Origin: a virus
Virus genome (UHGV): UHGV-0314758
Direction: 5' to 3' (one strand)
Length of the DNA stretch: 41,090 nt
The notes below the pieces were generated by a model, which did not search any database, was not told the DNA's origin, and saw only the letters and a program-made list of their open reading frames with translations. The translations under genes and the position numbers were made by a program. Of this stretch, positions 3,501 through 33,812 are shown piece after piece. How positions within the stretch are numbered: the first letter of the stretch is position 1; every line of letters begins with the position of its first letter.

Positions 3501-3554
3501 GCTGTAACGCAGTACCAGCCGTTAATGATTTGCCATTGCATACACACCTCACTA

Positions 3555-3568
3555 TTACCATTTGGTAA
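3555..3568. promoter_or_regulatory. operator-like palindrome TTACC-ATTT-GGTAA (OL cluster, 4-bp spacer variant)
   Basis: Direct read of the sequence. One of three sites between the repressor gene end and the leftward operon. Confidence 0.55.
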
Positions 3569-3628
3569 ATATCAGGGGTATGAGAAAGCCACCCGGTGGT
3601 GGATTTCTGGTAATTCAACGCCCTGCTG

Positions 3629-3643
3629 TTACCGTTAAGGTAA
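3629..3643. promoter_or_regulatory. operator-like palindrome TTACCGTTAAGGTAA (OL cluster)
   Basis: Perfect TTACC-N5-GGTAA followed by TAATAAT. An extra GGTAA half-site lies at 3609-3613. Confidence 0.6.
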
Positions 3644-3691
3644 TAATCTGATCAATTTATGGTTGTGTCAATAGATTTGATGAGGAAAAGT

Positions 3692-3706
3692 TTACCATTT
3701 TGGTAA
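3692..3706. promoter_or_regulatory. operator-like palindrome TTACCATTTTGGTAA (OL cluster)
   Basis: Perfect TTACC-N5-GGTAA. Confidence 0.6.
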
Positions 3707-3761
3707 GTGCATGAGGCGCGGGGAGTTATCCCACTGGCAGGAGTAACAGGTAGGTTAGAGG

Positions 3762-4343
3762 TTACTGGTTCTGGCTGACGATGAACTTGATGAAGGCGGC
3801 GATCTTGTTTTTCTCTTCCTGCGGCAGCCCGGCGTATTCATGGTGGTCATAGTCAATCAGACCAGCATTACCAGGCGGAAGGATCAGCTCATATGCATCG
3901 CGGCCGAACGCCCTGGCGATAGCCGACAGTACGCCAATGCTGGTGGAGCCTTCGCAGTTCAGGATGCGATTTACGGTCGCCTGGCCGATACCGGCCGCTT
4001 CCGAAACCTTTTTCTCTGAGTTCAGATCCGGATGCTGTCCCATCCATACACCCAGGGTAAACGCTGCCTGCTTTTCCACACTCCATTCCTGCGGGTCGAT
4101 AATCTCCGGCAGCGTCGGGGTATCTGACAGATGGTCGATATCCAGCCAGAACCGACCTTTCCCGGCGAACGACTCGATCTCGCGTGCCGCGTTGGCGCCG
4201 ATATTTTTTGTCCCTTTGCTCCACCTGTTAACGAGGTTAGCTGATTTTTTGATTCTCTCGGCAAACCGGAGTTGCGTGTTATCGAAATCCTTCCGGATTA
4301 TCTCATTGAGGTTGTCGCGTCTTATGTCGTAGATGCTTTTCAT
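3762..4343 (-). CDS. CI-like prophage repressor with two XRE-type HTH domains and no S24 peptidase domain
   Basis: 193 aa. HTH 1 is ...LRFAERIKKSANLVNRWSKG... and HTH 2 is ...VSEAAGIGQATVNRILNCEGSTSIGVLSAIARAFG.... There is no Ala-Gly/Ser-Lys autocleavage module. It is divergent from a cro-like gene and flanked by operator clusters. The start has no SD, as for a PRM-type leaderless transcript. Confidence 0.7.
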   Translation of the reverse strand: MKSIYDIRRDNLNEIIRKDFDNTQLRFAERIKKSANLVNRWSKGTKNIGANAAREIESFAGKGRFWLDIDHLSDTPTLPEIIDPQEWSVEKQAAFTLGVWMGQHPDLNSEKKVSEAAGIGQATVNRILNCEGSTSIGVLSAIARAFGRDAYELILPPGNAGLIDYDHHEYAGLPQEEKNKIAAFIKFIVSQNQ

Positions 4344-4396
4344 TTCTATTTTTTTAGCCTGAAATTGTTACCTAACTGATTAAATTTAATAGAATA

Positions 4397-4411
4397 TTAC
4401 CATAAAGGTAA
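4397..4411. promoter_or_regulatory. operator-like palindrome TTACCATAAAGGTAA (OR cluster)
   Basis: Perfect palindrome within the repressor/cro divergent region. Confidence 0.6.
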
Positions 4412-4413
4412 AC

Positions 4414-4428
4414 TTACCAAAAAGGTAA
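4414..4428. promoter_or_regulatory. operator-like palindrome TTACCAAAAAGGTAA (OR cluster)
   Basis: Perfect palindrome, 17 bp centre-to-centre from the previous site. Confidence 0.6.
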
Positions 4429-4434
4429 CAGTCA

Positions 4435-4463
4435 TTGATTTTTACACCAGATTGGTAATAATC
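4435..4463 (+). promoter_or_regulatory. candidate rightward early promoter (PR-like) with degenerate operator
   Basis: -35 TTGATT (4435-4440), 17-bp spacer, extended -10 TGGTAATAATC (4453-4463). The spacer ACACCAGATTGGTAA (4444-4458) is a degenerate half-palindrome. Confidence 0.45.
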
Positions 4464-4497: not shown

Positions 4498-4731
4498 ATG
4501 AGCGATGTGCAAAAATTTGACTTCAAACGCTGCTGGCTCGACCTCTCGCCGGCTGAGCGAGAAGAGTTCGCAAGTGACGCCGGCACGACCAGCCACTACA
4601 TTCAGGTTCACCTGACTGGCCGTAGAAGAATTCCACGTAAGCCTCTGTTAGAAAGACTGTTTAAAGCCTGCAAATCCCGTAATTGGATCTCCGCAAAATC
4701 CGACCTGGTCCTCTGGTTCCACGAACGTTAA
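4498..4731 (+). CDS. Cro-like HTH protein (YdaS/Cro family)
   Basis: 77 aa, divergent from the repressor. The motif LSPAEREEFASDAGTTSHYIQVHLTGRRRIPRKP resembles the YdaS/Cro-type HTH. Confidence 0.55.
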   Translation: MSDVQKFDFKRCWLDLSPAEREEFASDAGTTSHYIQVHLTGRRRIPRKPLLERLFKACKSRNWISAKSDLVLWFHER

Positions 4732-6636: not shown

Positions 6637-6673
6637 TACCGGCGCGGAAGCGCGTTTTTTTACGCCTTAATGT

Positions 6674-6688
6674 TTACCAAAAGGGTAA
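6674..6688. promoter_or_regulatory. operator-like palindrome TTACCAAAAGGGTAA
   Basis: Perfect palindrome, 6 nt upstream of a 16-codon mini-ORF (6695-6745, MRKTIDIDPFMVINYQ). Confidence 0.5.
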
Positions 6689-6735
6689 TAAAATATGCGC
6701 AAGACTATTGATATTGATCCGTTTATGGTTATAAA

Positions 6736-6750
6736 TTACCAATAAGGTAA
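6736..6750. promoter_or_regulatory. operator-like palindrome TTACCAATAAGGTAA
   Basis: Perfect palindrome, 5 nt upstream of ATG 6756. The GGTAA half probably doubles as the SD. Confidence 0.5.
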
Positions 6751-6755
6751 AAATC

Positions 6756-7300: not shown

Positions 7301-7742
7301 CATCGAAACAGTAAACGAGCTCATCGCCTCCCTGGAGTCAGCAGGCGAGCTGTCGATCAGAGAGCAGAAGTTCCTGAAGCTGGCTAAAGCGTACCAGCAG
7401 CTGGCTGCGGAGAATGCGGGGCTGAAGGCTGGCATTGCAGAAGAAATTGAAGTTATCAATCGTGGCGGTCAGGCGTACTGCGTGAAGGACGGCATGTCCA
7501 TAAACCCGATATATGCGCGCGGATGGAATGACCACCGGGCTAATTTGGCAGCGGAAAAAACCCCCGCCACCGATCGCATCGTAGCCGGGATTAAGGCTGA
7601 TGGGGTGGCGTTGGTTAAGTCTGCATTTGAGATGCATATCCAGTCTGCATCCTGCTATCAGGATGAAATTGTTGGAATGGAATCAGCGATGAGCATTGCA
7701 TGCCAAGTAGAGTCGCAGCTGCGCGAGGGGGCCGACAAATGA
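7296..7742 (+). CDS. hypothetical protein
   Basis: ATG 7296 (MNIETVNELIASLESAG...). The ORF track's 7236 start is a non-ATG upstream extension. Confidence 0.5.
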   Translation: MNIETVNELIASLESAGELSIREQKFLKLAKAYQQLAAENAGLKAGIAEEIEVINRGGQAYCVKDGMSINPIYARGWNDHRANLAAEKTPATDRIVAGIKADGVALVKSAFEMHIQSASCYQDEIVGMESAMSIACQVESQLREGADK

Positions 7743-9952: not shown

Positions 9953-9972
9953 TACTGTTTAAATATACAGTA
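9953..9972 (+). promoter_or_regulatory. LexA (SOS) box TACTGTTTAAATATACAGTA
   Basis: Matches the CTGT-N8-ACAG consensus with both half-sites intact. Lies 17 nt upstream of ATG 9990 and just downstream of a TTGACT -35-like hexamer at 9930-9935. Confidence 0.7.
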
Positions 9973-9989
9973 TTTTAGGGGTGAATATC

Positions 9990-10247
9990 ATGGGTGGCAA
10001 AGACCGTAATTATACTGTCGTTTACCGCGGGGATTTTATCGACGCCGTACCTGATGGCCGATGGATGATGATCCAGCGTGGCAAGGAGTACGGCGGCGGC
10101 TACTGGTTTGGTCGAGCTTATGCCGACTGCTTCTGGCTTGAGTTTGAGCGGCCAATGCCTCTATCAAGCTGTGTTGAGTACGTCGTGCTATACGACCATG
10201 TCGCTGCCAGAGCTCATGAGTTTGAGGATGAATTTAAACTGGAATGA
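9990..10247 (+). CDS. small SOS-regulated protein (candidate antirepressor/induction factor)
   Basis: 85 aa (MGGKDRNYTVVYRGDFIDAVPDGRWMMIQRGKEYGGGYWF...), RBS AGGGGTGAA. It lies directly downstream of the LexA box and is followed by a rho-independent terminator. Confidence 0.5.
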   Translation: MGGKDRNYTVVYRGDFIDAVPDGRWMMIQRGKEYGGGYWFGRAYADCFWLEFERPMPLSSCVEYVVLYDHVAARAHEFEDEFKLE

Positions 10248-10252
10248 CCGCG

Positions 10253-10279
10253 GCCGCCGACTATGGCGGCTTTGTTTTG
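10253..10279 (+). terminator. rho-independent terminator
   Basis: GCCGCC-GACTAT-GGCGGC stem-loop followed by TTTGTTTTG. Confidence 0.6.
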
Positions 10280-10289
10280 CGTGTTACTA

Positions 10290-10304
10290 TTACCTAAAAG
10301 GTAA
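10290..10304. promoter_or_regulatory. operator-like palindrome TTACCTAAAAGGTAA upstream of the late operon
   Basis: Perfect palindrome 20 nt upstream of the terminase small subunit start, immediately after the terminator. Confidence 0.5.
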
Positions 10305-10324
10305 TTATTTTCGGGGTGTTTACC

Positions 10325-13068: not shown

Positions 13069-13145
13069 TGGTGCAGCATGCAGGATTCGAACCTGCGACC
13101 AACCGCTTAGAAGGCGGTTGCTCTATCCTACTGAGCTAATGCCAC
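13069..13145 (-). tRNA. tRNA-Arg (anticodon UCU)
   Basis: Minus-strand sequence GTGGCAT-TA-GCTCAGTAGGATAGAGC-A-ACCGC-CTTCTAA-GCGGT-TGGTC-GCAGGTTCGAATCCTGC-ATGCTGC-A-CCA. It has a standard cloverleaf, a TCT anticodon and an encoded CCA. The acceptor stem carries two G-U pairs. Confidence 0.8.
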
Positions 13146-13460
13146 AACGAAGAGAGCACTGATTACCACAGTGGACCACCCGGCGAGGGAGGCGTTGCTT
13201 CCGCCAATGCTCTCATCGTTGCATCCTCGTCTCTTCCGAGGTGTCACACCGTACCGCCACGATGGTGAGTCGCTGTCGTGCATGCAGGGCATGGCTTGCA
13301 CATTCCGGCTACCCGCTGGGCCATGTACCAAGGAGCCCCCGGACCGCTATCGACGCATGTGCCATACGCCGGATGCTTTCACACCTGGAAGCGCACTCCG
13401 CCATCTGAGTAACGACAAAGCCACCAATGGAAGGGAATGGGGTGCGCTTTCATGTTGTGT

Positions 13461-13475
13461 TTACCAAAAAGGTAA
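13461..13475. promoter_or_regulatory. operator-like palindrome TTACCAAAAAGGTAA (divergent late/moron promoter region)
   Basis: Perfect palindrome followed by TAATTT. It is preceded by TTGTGT, which could serve as a -35. Confidence 0.5.
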
Positions 13476-13530
13476 TAATTTATCGGCAAAAGGTCAATAC
13501 ACTACGACAAATAAATCATATGTGGTTAAA

Positions 13531-29966: not shown

Positions 29967-31162
<1,196 letters not shown>

Positions 31163-31762: not shown

Positions 31763-31786
31763 TAAAAAGCCCGCTATGCGGGCTAT
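31763..31786 (-). terminator. rho-independent terminator for hicBA
   Basis: On the minus strand: AGCCCGC-ATA-GCGGGCT followed by TTTTTAAT, directly after the hicA stop. Confidence 0.55.
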
Positions 31787-31983
31787 TAAAAATACTTATC
31801 TAAACCAGCGTCTTTCAATATGTTATTTGCTGTGTGTTTCGATTTCACAGTAAACGGAACAGAAAAATTCCTTGATGACAATGGACTATACCATATCTCA
31901 TGACTGCCTTTTCCTTGCCTTACAAAATAACAATTTGCAGACTTAAGGATATCAACGAGCCTGGGGTATAGTCCTGTACCCAT
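31786..31983 (-). CDS. hicA: HicA-family mRNA interferase toxin
   Basis: 65 aa (...FVRQGKGSHEIWYSP...NILKDAGL...) with the conserved G-S-H motif of HicA/YcfA. Confidence 0.7.
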   Translation of the reverse strand: MGTGLYPRLVDILKSANCYFVRQGKGSHEIWYSPLSSRNFSVPFTVKSKHTANNILKDAGLDKYF

Positions 31984-31986
31984 ACA

Positions 31987-32244
31987 CTACAGTGCCATTC
32001 TGTCAGTGAAGTTCTGTTCCTGAATGAAGGATAAATGCAGCCGTTTGAGGTTGCCTTTGTATCCGTTCATTTCATATAGCTCAGGAGCTATCTCCCACAC
32101 TCTTTCGGTAAGATCTTCGTAAGAGTCAGCTTCAGTGGAGAGCCCAAGATCTTCACAGTATGCCACCCATACATTCTCTTCTGTATCGTGACACACGTTT
32201 ACTTTGAAAAGGCTCGAGAATTTCAACACATCATCAGTTCTCAT
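31987..32244 (-). CDS. hicB: HicB-family antitoxin (short form, N-terminal domain only)
   Basis: ATG 32244 with a perfect AGGAGG RBS. ...NVWVAYCEDLGLSTEADSYEDLTERVWEIAPELYEM... matches the HicB/UPF0150 N-terminal fold. The ORF track's 32292 start is an unsupported extension. Confidence 0.55.
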   Translation of the reverse strand: MRTDDVLKFSSLFKVNVCHDTEENVWVAYCEDLGLSTEADSYEDLTERVWEIAPELYEMNGYKGNLKRLHLSFIQEQNFTDRMAL

Positions 32245-32258
32245 AGTCGCCTCCTGTT

Positions 32259-32273
32259 TTACCTTATTGGTAA
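32259..32273. promoter_or_regulatory. operator-like palindrome TTACCTTATTGGTAA at +1 of the hicBA promoter
   Basis: Minus-strand promoter: -35 TTGACG (32300..32295), 16-bp spacer, -10 TAGTAT (32278..32273). The palindrome lies immediately downstream of the -10, and the AGGAGG RBS follows it. Confidence 0.55.
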
Positions 32274-32336
32274 TACTAAGCCACCCATGCAATCCGTCAA
32301 GAATTATTTTAAAAGCGCTTCCCTGCGCCAGCAGCC

Positions 32337-33041
32337 TCAGTAACCCTTGGCCTTAGCCACCACGTACTGTGCGTGCGTCTCTATGTCGCGCAGTACGGCG
32401 CCGATACCAACAATGTAGCTGAGCATGGCCGTGACCTCTGCGGCGGCGCCGGATACATCATGCCCGTCAGCATCGAGTTCCCGGAGCAGCTTCATTACCA
32501 TTGAGCTTTTGGCCAGTTCACGCAGGCCATCAGGTGAATGGATATGATCCTGATAGCGTCGGTTAAGAGGGAAGGTGTAATGCTTCTGCTCGACCTGCAA
32601 TGCATCCATGATCGCCGGCAACATGCTGCTGGTCATCTCCTGCGCCAGCATGCGGGCTTTATCAGTCTGGGAGAGTTCTTCCCGAACGTAGCGGCCAGTC
32701 TTGCGGATCTGCGGCAGCACCTCGCTGGTTACCCATTTGCGGAAGCGGTAGGGTATAGACCCTTTTTTGGTAGCATCACGGCAGCGTAATATCATAGTGT
32801 AAAGGCCTGGTTCAGATATCACACTCAGGCTTTGAGGCCCAATTCCAGGCTGACTGTCGGTTAAACCGACGGTATCTTTTTCATCATCATCAAGCTTGAG
32901 AAGAGCATCGCGGTTGTTAGAAATTCCCAATGCATTACACACATCAATAGCAACAAACCATGGCTCACCGTTAATGGTAAATGTGCGAATTTTAACCGTA
33001 GAGTCGAAAGAGAAAATAGACAGTGCATTTTGTGCAGTCAT
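32337..33041 (-). CDS. Bro-N domain antirepressor
   Basis: ATG 33041 with an AAAGGTG RBS. MTAQNALSIFSFDSTVKIRTFTINGEPWFVAIDVCNALGISNNRDA... matches a Bro-N domain. The C-terminal roughly 75 aa are paralogous to the 33361..33621 product. Confidence 0.7.
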   Translation of the reverse strand: MTAQNALSIFSFDSTVKIRTFTINGEPWFVAIDVCNALGISNNRDALLKLDDDEKDTVGLTDSQPGIGPQSLSVISEPGLYTMILRCRDATKKGSIPYRFRKWVTSEVLPQIRKTGRYVREELSQTDKARMLAQEMTSSMLPAIMDALQVEQKHYTFPLNRRYQDHIHSPDGLRELAKSSMVMKLLRELDADGHDVSGAAAEVTAMLSYIVGIGAVLRDIETHAQYVVAKAKGY

Positions 33042-33200
33042 AGTGATCACCTTTGTAGTTAGGTTAATCACCACCGGAGGTTCCAATCTCTGAGGTGGTG
33101 AGACGTACAGGGTTGGAACTACCGGCTACAAAGGACCCGGCGCACCTTTCGGTGCCCCTGCACGCCCCACCATAATTCGAATGTGGCCGTGCTGAACGCA

Positions 33201-33221
33201 TAAAAAAACCGCTTACGCGGT
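33201..33221 (-). terminator. rho-independent terminator (minus strand)
   Basis: Minus strand ACCGC-GTAA-GCGGT followed by TTTTTTT. It lies between the small SOS gene and the Bro-N gene. Confidence 0.5.
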
Positions 33222-33313
33222 AAAGCGCCTCTGTAGTCATCCGGGGTTCCAATCCCGGCACCGGATTTTGCCGATGCCCGATCACTATGGCACAATGGGA
33301 ATGGGTTGTAAAT

Positions 33314-33328
33314 TTACCATTTTGGTAA
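33314..33328. promoter_or_regulatory. operator-like palindrome TTACCATTTTGGTAA
   Basis: Perfect palindrome flanked by TTGTAA (-35-like, 33306-33311) and TAATAA (33329-33334). Confidence 0.5.
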
Positions 33329-33360
33329 TAATAAACCCATCGTTATTTTGATTTCAATCA

Positions 33361-33621
33361 CTATCTGAGTTGCTGCCGCAACTGCATCGCGCAGAAATCC
33401 AGATGCGTTTGCAGCTCCCGCATCGACAACTGCGAGCTTGTCACATAGTTAACCAGTGCCACCAGTTCCGCCGCCGCACCGCTGACATCGTGGCCGTCTC
33501 GCTCCATCTCCCTGAGCAACTCCATCAGCTGTGATTTTACAACCAGGGATCTGACCCCTTCCGGGGTGTGAATACGATCCGCAAAACCTTCGTCGACAGG
33601 ATACTGGTACCGCTCTGGCAT
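33361..33621 (-). CDS. small protein paralogous to the antirepressor C-terminal domain; SOS-regulated candidate antirepressor
   Basis: ATG 33621 with a GGAG RBS. MPERYQYPVDEGFADRIHTPEGVRSLVVKSQLMELLREMERDGHDVSGAAAELVALVNYV aligns with the Bro-N protein C-terminus (RRYQDHIHSPDGLRELAKSSMVMKLLRELDADGHDVSGAAAEVTAMLSYIV). A LexA box lies 19 nt upstream. Confidence 0.55.
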   Translation of the reverse strand: MPERYQYPVDEGFADRIHTPEGVRSLVVKSQLMELLREMERDGHDVSGAAAELVALVNYVTSSQLSMRELQTHLDFCAMQLRQQLR

Positions 33622-33639: not shown

Positions 33640-33659
33640 TACTGTATATATATACATAT
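33640..33659 (-). promoter_or_regulatory. LexA (SOS) box TACTGTATATATATACATAT
   Basis: CTGT-N8 (ATATATAT)-ACAT, a 17/20 match to TACTGTATATATATACAGTA. Lies immediately upstream of the 33621 start. Confidence 0.6.
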
Positions 33660-33695
33660 ATCAAAACGTAACAAAGTTTTCCAGAGCTCTTTTGT

Positions 33696-33710
33696 TTACC
33701 TTAATGGTAA
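33696..33710. promoter_or_regulatory. operator-like palindrome TTACCTTAATGGTAA
   Basis: Perfect palindrome in the divergent region between the SOS-regulated small gene and the tailspike. Confidence 0.5.
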
Positions 33711-33812
33711 TGTTTTTGCTCGTTTCGATCTGTTTTATTCATATATGGTTTGATGGGTAATAGAATGATCTCCAGTGTGGCGCGCCGGGCGCTGCGACAT
33801 CCGGAGATTTCA

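Follow-up and report, generated by a model that had tools for sequence, protein, structure and literature searches.

The Rep-Ant switch known from the Salmonella phage SPC32H (PDB 5D4Z, 5D50; Kim and Ryu 2013; Kim et al. 2016) is common to epsilon15-like phages, and the present work concerns its counterpart in the virus genome UHGV-0314758, which was analysed over its whole stretch of 41,090 nucleotides (the window). The two genes at the centre of this counterpart are rep, encoding the repressor Rep, and ant, encoding the antirepressor Ant. In SPC32H, Rep binds DNA as a tetramer, which is broken when an Ant tetramer binds two Rep dimers (PMC9638917), and a crystal structure of the Rep-Ant complex is available (PDB 5D50). 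The DNA-binding domain of SPC32H Rep is N-terminal, its middle domain is described as the dimerisation domain, and its C-terminal domain (CAD) serves both tetramerisation and the binding of Ant (PMC9986798). The antirepressor is under LexA control (PMC7380047, PMC9638917, PMC9986798) and induction proceeds through it and not through cleavage of the repressor (PMC7380047; bioRxiv 2025.11.27.690993). Coliphage 186 Tum and the GfoA, GftA and FsoA proteins of the Gifsy/Fels prophages are LexA-controlled antirepressors as well (Lemire et al. 2011, PMC3121763).

DNA similarity identifies the window as an epsilon15-like phage (Uetakevirus) of Klebsiella and, as judged from sequence, Rep is the lysogeny repressor of this phage and the orthologue of SPC32H Rep. 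It is probable that the window encodes a Rep-Ant switch in which Rep is not cleaved and SOS induction is driven by Ant, together with a second protein carrying an Ant domain. In the mechanism that we propose, the N-terminal helix-turn-helix (HTH) of Rep would read TTACC-N5-GGTAA both at the rep-cro switch and near promoters at about ten further places, while the second HTH-like module would dimerise and the C-terminal tail would form tetramers. Lacking an S24 domain, Rep would not cut itself when prompted by RecA. DNA damage would take LexA off the box at the ant promoter, Ant would be made, and its binding to the C-terminal part of Rep would make the repressor leave the DNA. A fusion of Bro-N with an Ant-like domain, placed behind a promoter with a Rep operator and an isrK/C4 antisense-RNA switch, would probably reinforce or broaden antirepression as Rep fails or on infection. 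What the analysis itself shows is the homologies, the layout of the domains, the lack of S24, and the sites together with their conservation. We infer the binding of Rep by Ant, the oligomeric states and the non-cleavage of Rep by analogy with SPC32H, and the role of the Bro-N fusion from its sequence.

The mechanism is already established in SPC32H, a close relative, and the main proposal of an earlier sequence-only reading of this DNA is supported: an uncleavable repressor combined with an SOS-controlled antirepressor is what has been reported for the SPC32H protein, to which Rep is 64% identical. Only a variant LexA box, an RNA-controlled Ant-domain fusion and an SOS cassette would go beyond what is known, and all three are inferred.

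The repressor Rep

The features of the repressor and of its divergent neighbour are the following.

3762-4343, minus strand: rep, lysogeny repressor gene, predicted orthologue of SPC32H rep (193 amino acids (aa), ATG start; phmmer against 5d50_A)
4134-4343, minus strand: Rep residues 1-70, N-terminal HTH, presumed DNA-binding domain (weak HTH_3/YdaS matches; four-helix bundle in the model)
3876-4079, minus strand: Rep residues 89-156, second XRE-type HTH-like module (HTH_3 at residues 109-152; 5d4z match)
3765-3875, minus strand: Rep residues 157-193, C-terminal tail (conserved motif; terminal helix in the model)
4498-4731, plus strand: cro-like 77-aa gene, divergent from rep (phrog_35 'transcriptional repressor', E=4e-9; weak HTH_31 match)

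The gene rep occupies the cI position, divergent from the cro-like gene, with RecE/RecT-like genes to the left and replication genes to the right. Using phmmer, residues 1-192 of Rep matched chain A of PDB 5D50 ('Repressor', from the Rep-Ant complex of a Salmonella temperate phage) with E=4.4e-76, and residues 89-192 matched 5D4Z (Rep 92-198) with E=7.7e-39. Global identity to the SPC32H rep product (KC911856) is 64%; domain by domain, the N-terminal domain has 74%, the linker 28%, the middle module 65% and the tail 62%. The top Foldseek matches of the Rep model are 5D50 and 5D4Z. The rep region is moreover 96-99% identical to those of Kp4865-1, BUCT711 and two prophages of carbapenemase-producing K. 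pneumoniae. In the databases examined Rep is labelled as a generic XRE or helix-turn-helix regulator.

Pfam HTH_3 matched two stretches of the whole protein (E=7e-10). Residues 89-193 alone reached 28 bits, above the curated cutoff of 23 bits, whereas residues 1-87 alone stayed below it with 14.2 bits (E=0.045). PHROG repressor families match either half separately and cover residues 1-76 in the N-terminal one. Pairwise BLAST of one half against the other gave no match; a profile-profile comparison, with profiles built from 19 homologues, aligned the two halves in HTH register, although weakly (E=3.5e-4, probability 37%), and brought NL..I...Q.R.AE....Q.LVNRW of the N-terminal half opposite TL..WM...SE.KVA.AAG..QATVNRI of the second. 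The AlphaFold model (predicted local distance difference test, pLDDT, 82) contains helical bundles at residues 4-60 and 89-154 separated by a disordered linker, and the second bundle is followed by a short helix and by a long terminal helix at 175-192. Below the SPC32H entries, the Foldseek matches were only XRE/HTH_3 regulators (NHTF, DdrO, ClgR, C.BclI and C.AhdI). In the tail the motif I-x-Y-D...LPQEEKNKI..FI.F is conserved in the 19 homologues. According to the model and the 5d4z alignment, Rep has the three-part architecture of its SPC32H homologue, namely DNA-binding domain, dimerisation domain and tail (domain names from PMC9986798). By this analogy the second module, an HTH by family and fold, is the equivalent of the dimerisation domain, and the tail is that of the CAD.

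No Peptidase_S24 match to Rep was obtained with Pfam even at E<=10. The AlphaFold model is all-alpha with zero beta strands, and neither an S24 nor a LexA C-terminal nor a UmuD structure is found among its Foldseek matches. Only about 40 residues remain after the second HTH, and none of the Ala-Gly dipeptides of Rep (residues 60, 117, 160 and 171) precedes an S24 fold. Since Rep has no S24 protease domain, RecA should not be able to trigger its self-cleavage. Rep is similar to lambda CI, P22 C2 and LexA in its N-terminal XRE-type HTH, in its cI position opposite cro and in its paired operators, but it differs from them in having no S24 or beta-rich C-terminal domain and, by analogy with SPC32H, would oligomerise through an HTH-like domain and a short tail. 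The two XRE-type HTH modules that the sequence-only reading had recognised in this CI-position protein are borne out by the two HTH_3 stretches and the two bundles of the model, even if the first module alone falls below the cutoff, and the absence of an autocleavage module is confirmed. What does not carry over from the notion of tandem HTH motifs is a second DNA reader, as the SPC32H equivalent of the second one is described as a dimerisation domain.

No obvious Shine-Dalgarno sequence lies 5-12 nt before the rep ATG (4344-4360, upstream sequence AGGCTAAAAAAATAGAA), and the same is true for SPC32H. Translation of rep may be leaderless or weakly initiated.

The antirepressor Ant

33361-33621, minus strand: ant, gene of an 86-aa antirepressor, predicted orthologue of SPC32H ant (phmmer against 5d50_E, 'Anti-repressor protein', E=2.5e-33, full length)

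The protein encoded by ant is 65% identical to SPC32H Ant and its gene is divergent from the tailspike gene, which is the position that ant has in SPC32H. Besides the similarity of both proteins, the three parts of Rep and the position of ant, the two phages have in common the operator palindrome, the rep-cro layout and a LexA-type box just upstream of ant. They differ in the host, which is Klebsiella here, and in one half-site of the ant box, which is clade-wide ATGT here and CTGT in SPC32H. Moreover, the second Ant-domain protein under isrK/C4 control and the extra SOS cassette, both present here, are missing from SPC32H.

The likeness to coliphage 186 and the Gifsy/Fels prophages is one of logic only, that is, an uncleavable repressor combined with a small antirepressor made from a LexA-repressed promoter. 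General searches detected no similarity of Ant to the 186/Gifsy antirepressors, although no direct sequence comparison with Tum or GfoA was made, and ant does not lie in a dinI operon. In PMC3121763 the Gifsy repressors are likened to DicA and RacR rather than to Rep and are described as smaller than lambda CI.

Ant matched no Pfam or NCBIfam family. Its PHROG family, phrog_450, is listed as 'unknown function' in PHROGs, although SPC32H Ant has been characterised and its structure solved (5D50).

Candidate Rep operators and promoters

The predicted operators and the promoter-like sites near them are listed below.

4396-4412 and 4413-4429, no strand: two abutting perfect predicted operators between rep and cro (every base shared with SPC32H)
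4443-4459, no strand: imperfect third predicted operator TACACCAGATTGGTAAT (overlaps the spacer and -10 of the rightward cro promoter; conserved in SPC32H)
4435-4462, plus strand: rightward cro promoter-like site TTGATT-16-AATAAT (promoter scan)
3628-3644 and 3691-3707, no strand: two predicted operator palindromes (bracketing the leftward promoter-like site)
3671-3643, minus strand: leftward promoter-like site TTGACA-17-GATTAT (promoter scan)
33695-33711, no strand: predicted operator between ant and the tailspike gene (palindrome search)
33313-33329, no strand: predicted operator abutting the promoter-like site that reads into isrK (palindrome search)

Perfect TTACC-N5-GGTAA palindromes occur 11 times in the window, where 0.00 were expected, and no other kind of palindrome is over-represented. 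SPC32H carries 10 such sites at syntenic places, and in the GenBank record of epsilon15 the equivalent of the ant-adjacent site is annotated as a protein_bind feature, 'repressor'. These palindromes are likely to be the operators of Rep, and the imperfect site at 4443-4459 would act as an operator too. Further palindromes precede the DUF1064 gene, the terminase genes, the hicB-like gene and isrK, which suggests that many separate transcription units may be silenced by Rep. The gene ant has palindromes on both sides, 382 bp apart. At 7528 and 38818 there are 17-mers that deviate from the operator pattern at two positions; they lack the palindromic core and were treated as chance occurrences.

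Over the whole genome, the palindromes are spread by promoter-like sites, some of them ahead of accessory genes, within 3554-3707, 6673-6751, 10289-10305, 13460-13476, 32258-32274, 33313-33329 and 33695-33711.

LexA boxes and a putative SOS cassette

Putative LexA boxes were scored by a heterology index (HI), the matrix for which was rebuilt from Escherichia coli LexA sites, and all HI values are approximate; the SOS boxes of this training set range from 2.2 to 11.9. Only two sites in the window have an HI<=12, and most trials with mononucleotide shuffles gave no such site.

33640-33659, no strand: LexA box 18 nt before the ant gene, read on the ant strand as ATATGTATATATATACAGTA (one of its half-sites is non-canonical)
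9953-9972, no strand: near-consensus LexA box TACTGTTTAAATATACAGTA (approximate HI 1.8; 17 nt before the phrog_2100 gene)
9990-10247, plus strand: 85-aa gene of family phrog_2100, predicted to be SOS-controlled (behind the LexA box 9953-9972)
10252-10271, plus strand: terminator belonging to the phrog_2100 gene

The stretch 9953-10271 is self-contained, comprising a LexA box, the 85-aa phrog_2100 gene and a terminator. The product is named only 'lF-82' in some NCBI records. Its model has a four-stranded sheet and a helix (pLDDT 85) and no significant match in the PDB. Homologues are encoded by SSU5, the P22-like phage SE1, Cronobacter phage ENT47670, Serratia phage BZS1 and two P2-like phages, all of them behind strong LexA boxes, and in the P2-like phages the gene is part of a dinI operon. 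In the corresponding slot ahead of the terminase genes, and with the same LexA box, BUCT711 has a different open reading frame (ORF) of 109 aa that starts with MGFPSPAADY (locus L002, 34-401, minus strand); a resemblance of this ORF to UmuD'/HumD was seen by eye only and Pfam found no family for it. SPC32H has neither a LexA box nor a gene there. The phrog_2100 gene is regarded, from its setting and its homologues, as a putative SOS accessory cassette and not as an antirepressor gene. It had at first been taken for Ant (9990-10247), an assignment rejected as it matched neither the 5D50 Ant chain nor Pfam, NCBIfam or any PDB fold.

In three related IMG/VR loci (L058, L068 and L073) unrelated sequence takes the place of the left half of the LexA box at ant and of all that lies upstream. 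The junction, at which …GGGAAGACCC is joined to ATATATATACAGTAT, has the look of a breakpoint within the LexA box, left by a rearrangement or an insertion.

The Bro-N protein and the isrK and C4 RNAs

Between ant and a gene encoding a Bro-N protein, isrK and C4 RNAs are found in tandem.

32337-33041, minus strand: gene of a Bro-N protein with an Ant-like C-terminal domain (234 aa from ATG; Pfam Bro-N, E=4e-20)
33202-33277, minus strand: isrK RNA with a1/b1-type sequences AUUGGAAC and CUACAGAGG (Rfam RF01394, 79.3 bits against a gathering score of 50)
33091-33177, minus strand: C4 antisense RNA with a'/b' sequences GUUCCAAC and CCUUUGUAG (Rfam RF01695, 79.4 bits against a gathering score of 45)
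33357-33328, minus strand: promoter-like site TTGAAA-18-TATTAT reading into isrK (abutted by the operator palindrome 33313-33329)
33064-33201, minus strand: 45-codon ORF spanning C4 (stops 22 nt before the Bro start codon)

The Bro-N ORF was listed with 249 aa from a TTG start, and in this numbering residues 167-244 match residues 2-79 of 5d50_E (E=8.6e-16). The C-terminal 80 residues also match phrog_450 (E=2.7e-38). Because this C-terminal domain is Ant-like, the Bro-N protein is probably a second antirepressor, similar to AnrP, acting on Rep or on related repressors. The HI scan of the window found no LexA box for its gene.

A terminator is present at the end of isrK. By direct reading of the sequence, CCUUUGUAG of C4 is complementary to CUACAAAGG, a stretch 9-17 nt ahead of the Bro ATG that covers the Shine-Dalgarno region, and GUUCCAA of C4 is complementary to UUGGAAC just before the ATG. 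Near-copies of both of these targets of C4 in the Bro leader are held by isrK, namely CUACAGAGG and AUUGGAAC. Duplex energies calculated for C4 against the Bro leader and for isrK against orf45 were not clearly beyond those of shuffles, the predicted duplexes being unnaturally long. In five relatives isrK and C4 precede genes annotated as 'anti-repressor', whereas both are absent from SPC32H and BUCT711, and the module is therefore optional in this phage group.

A comparable layout is that of the immI region of P1 and P7, c4-icd-ant. In Gifsy-1 the corresponding order is isrK-orf45-anrP (Hershko-Shalev et al. 2016, PMC4825925). The present locus resembles these in its isrK and C4 RNAs, in the 45-codon ORF spanning C4, in the antirepressor-like Bro-N gene downstream and in the complementarity of C4 to the ribosome-binding site of that downstream gene. 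It differs from them in that the C-terminal domain of the antirepressor is homologous to SPC32H Ant, that a Rep-operator palindrome directly adjoins the promoter before isrK and that orf45 ends before the Bro start codon with no overlap.

The induction route put forward by the sequence-only reading consisted of two LexA boxes and Bro-N and Bro-C antirepressor genes, after the manner of the Gifsy/Fels prophages and coliphage 186. The two boxes were recovered at 9953-9972 and 33640-33659 and the SOS logic is supported, as is the parallel in regulation. The cognate antirepressor, however, is the unnamed 86-aa Ant, which is neither a classical Bro protein nor a protein of the Tum/Gifsy type, and of the two boxes the one at ant has a non-canonical half-site while the other, which is perfect, precedes the phrog_2100 gene and not an antirepressor gene. 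Bro-N itself was found, but no separate Bro-C occurs among the ORFs scanned. The tie of the Bro-N gene to LexA had to be given up, since isrK/C4 antisense RNAs and a promoter with a Rep operator stand in its place.

Weighing the proposed mechanism

The control of ant by LexA is the point at which several observations weigh against the proposed Rep-Ant switch. The box has ATGT instead of CTGT in one half-site, and its approximate HI is 7.4 against 3.1 in SPC32H. This value is close to the approximate 7.9 of SPC32N, whose box is that of SPC32H but for one base (ACAG to AAAG), and SPC32N reportedly makes Ant constitutively. Moreover, a scan for consensus sigma-70 promoters found none for ant. In the Klebsiella clade ant could, then, lie outside effective LexA control, SOS reaching Rep in another way and ant being silenced, for instance, by Rep at the operators that flank it (33313-33329 and 33695-33711); a near-consensus LexA box is available elsewhere in the genome (9953-9972). 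We consider this unlikely. The canonical CTGT-N8-ACAG is found at the ant position in relatives from Salmonella, E. coli and Enterobacter, and the ATGT variant in five of five Klebsiella relatives and in about 65 IMG/VR loci, in some of which Ant is only 70-86% identical and the flanks differ. Being clade-wide, the variant is a selected state of the clade and not damage in one genome. While the flanks vary, these loci keep all of the 20-mer, the good half-site and the AT spacer included, and therefore a dimeric binder with LexA geometry is indicated. The box matches the consensus at 17 of 20 positions, its HI falls inside the range of the E. coli SOS boxes in the training set, and the dinG and recN3 boxes of that set are likewise without the C. 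In addition, such phages are found as prophages in clinical strains, so that ant is not fully on. The ant box would be a weaker LexA site that is still bound by LexA. SOS could also act through the 85-aa phrog_2100 protein, either as the true antirepressor of Rep or as a co-factor for induction. This protein is small, as known antirepressors are, the LexA box before its gene is the best one that the genome contains, its homologues in six unrelated temperate phages all have strong LexA boxes, and its location in the dinI operon of P2-like phages is next to the places of tum-type genes. Such a role is nevertheless very improbable, as the protein resembles neither Ant nor any chain of solved structure and is found together with quite different repressors (P22-like, P2-like and SSU5-like), which fits a host-directed SOS accessory better; furthermore, BUCT711 keeps Rep and Ant with the other 109-aa ORF in the slot, and in SPC32H the slot holds neither box nor gene.

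Other alternatives concern Rep itself. If both HTH modules read DNA, each subunit would contact two DNA segments, and it is true that Pfam HTH_3 and HTH_26 match the second module better than the first, that hhalign puts its VNRI helix in register with the N-terminal VNRW helix and that the operators are paired. We find this improbable, because in SPC32H the DNA-binding domain is the N-terminal one and the middle domain is described as serving dimerisation (PMC9986798), the pairing of operators is already explained by tetramer formation (PMC9638917), and a single kind of palindrome is over-represented in the window. That Rep is a repressor of the lambda CI/LexA type, cleaving itself on activated RecA, is scarcely conceivable. 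In its favour are the four Ala-Gly dipeptides and several Ser and Lys residues, but the lack of a Peptidase_S24 match at E<=10, the all-alpha model without any S24-type Foldseek match and the shortness of Rep beyond the second HTH all argue against it, and the SPC32H homologue works via Ant (PMC9638917, PMC7380047, bioRxiv 2025.11.27.690993).

Within the Rep-Ant switch that we favour, a more specific arrangement is possible, though doubtful: in the Klebsiella clade a single Rep might be targeted by two paralogous Ant-domain antirepressors with different inputs. The variant ant box would then set an induction threshold that is lower than in Salmonella, or partly independent of LexA, and the Rep-operated promoter of the Bro-N fusion, together with isrK and C4, would provide positive feedback or anti-immunity on infection.

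The recognition of the Rep-Ant pair matters mainly for annotation. It also explains the likely induction by DNA-damaging antibiotics of common Klebsiella pneumoniae prophages, several of which were found in clinical strains that produce carbapenemase. As small leads, the clade-wide variant of the LexA box and the second Ant-domain protein, with its RNA control, bear on the tuning of induction thresholds and on cross-talk among prophages.

Other features of the window

A probable toxin-antitoxin pair is encoded at 31786-32292 on the minus strand, comprising a HicA-like 65-aa ORF (by eye) and a DUF1902 ORF of the HicB type (Pfam, E=5.5e-10). Directly upstream of this pair are a promoter-like site and the operator palindrome 32258-32274. 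A 326-aa ORF resembling an IS5-family transposase (by eye) is located at 30114-31094 on the minus strand, within the accessory region, between the tail genes and the toxin-antitoxin-like pair. A tRNA-Arg gene (anticodon TCT) is present at 13069-13145 on the minus strand, and its relative place matches that of the tRNA-Arg of SPC32H.

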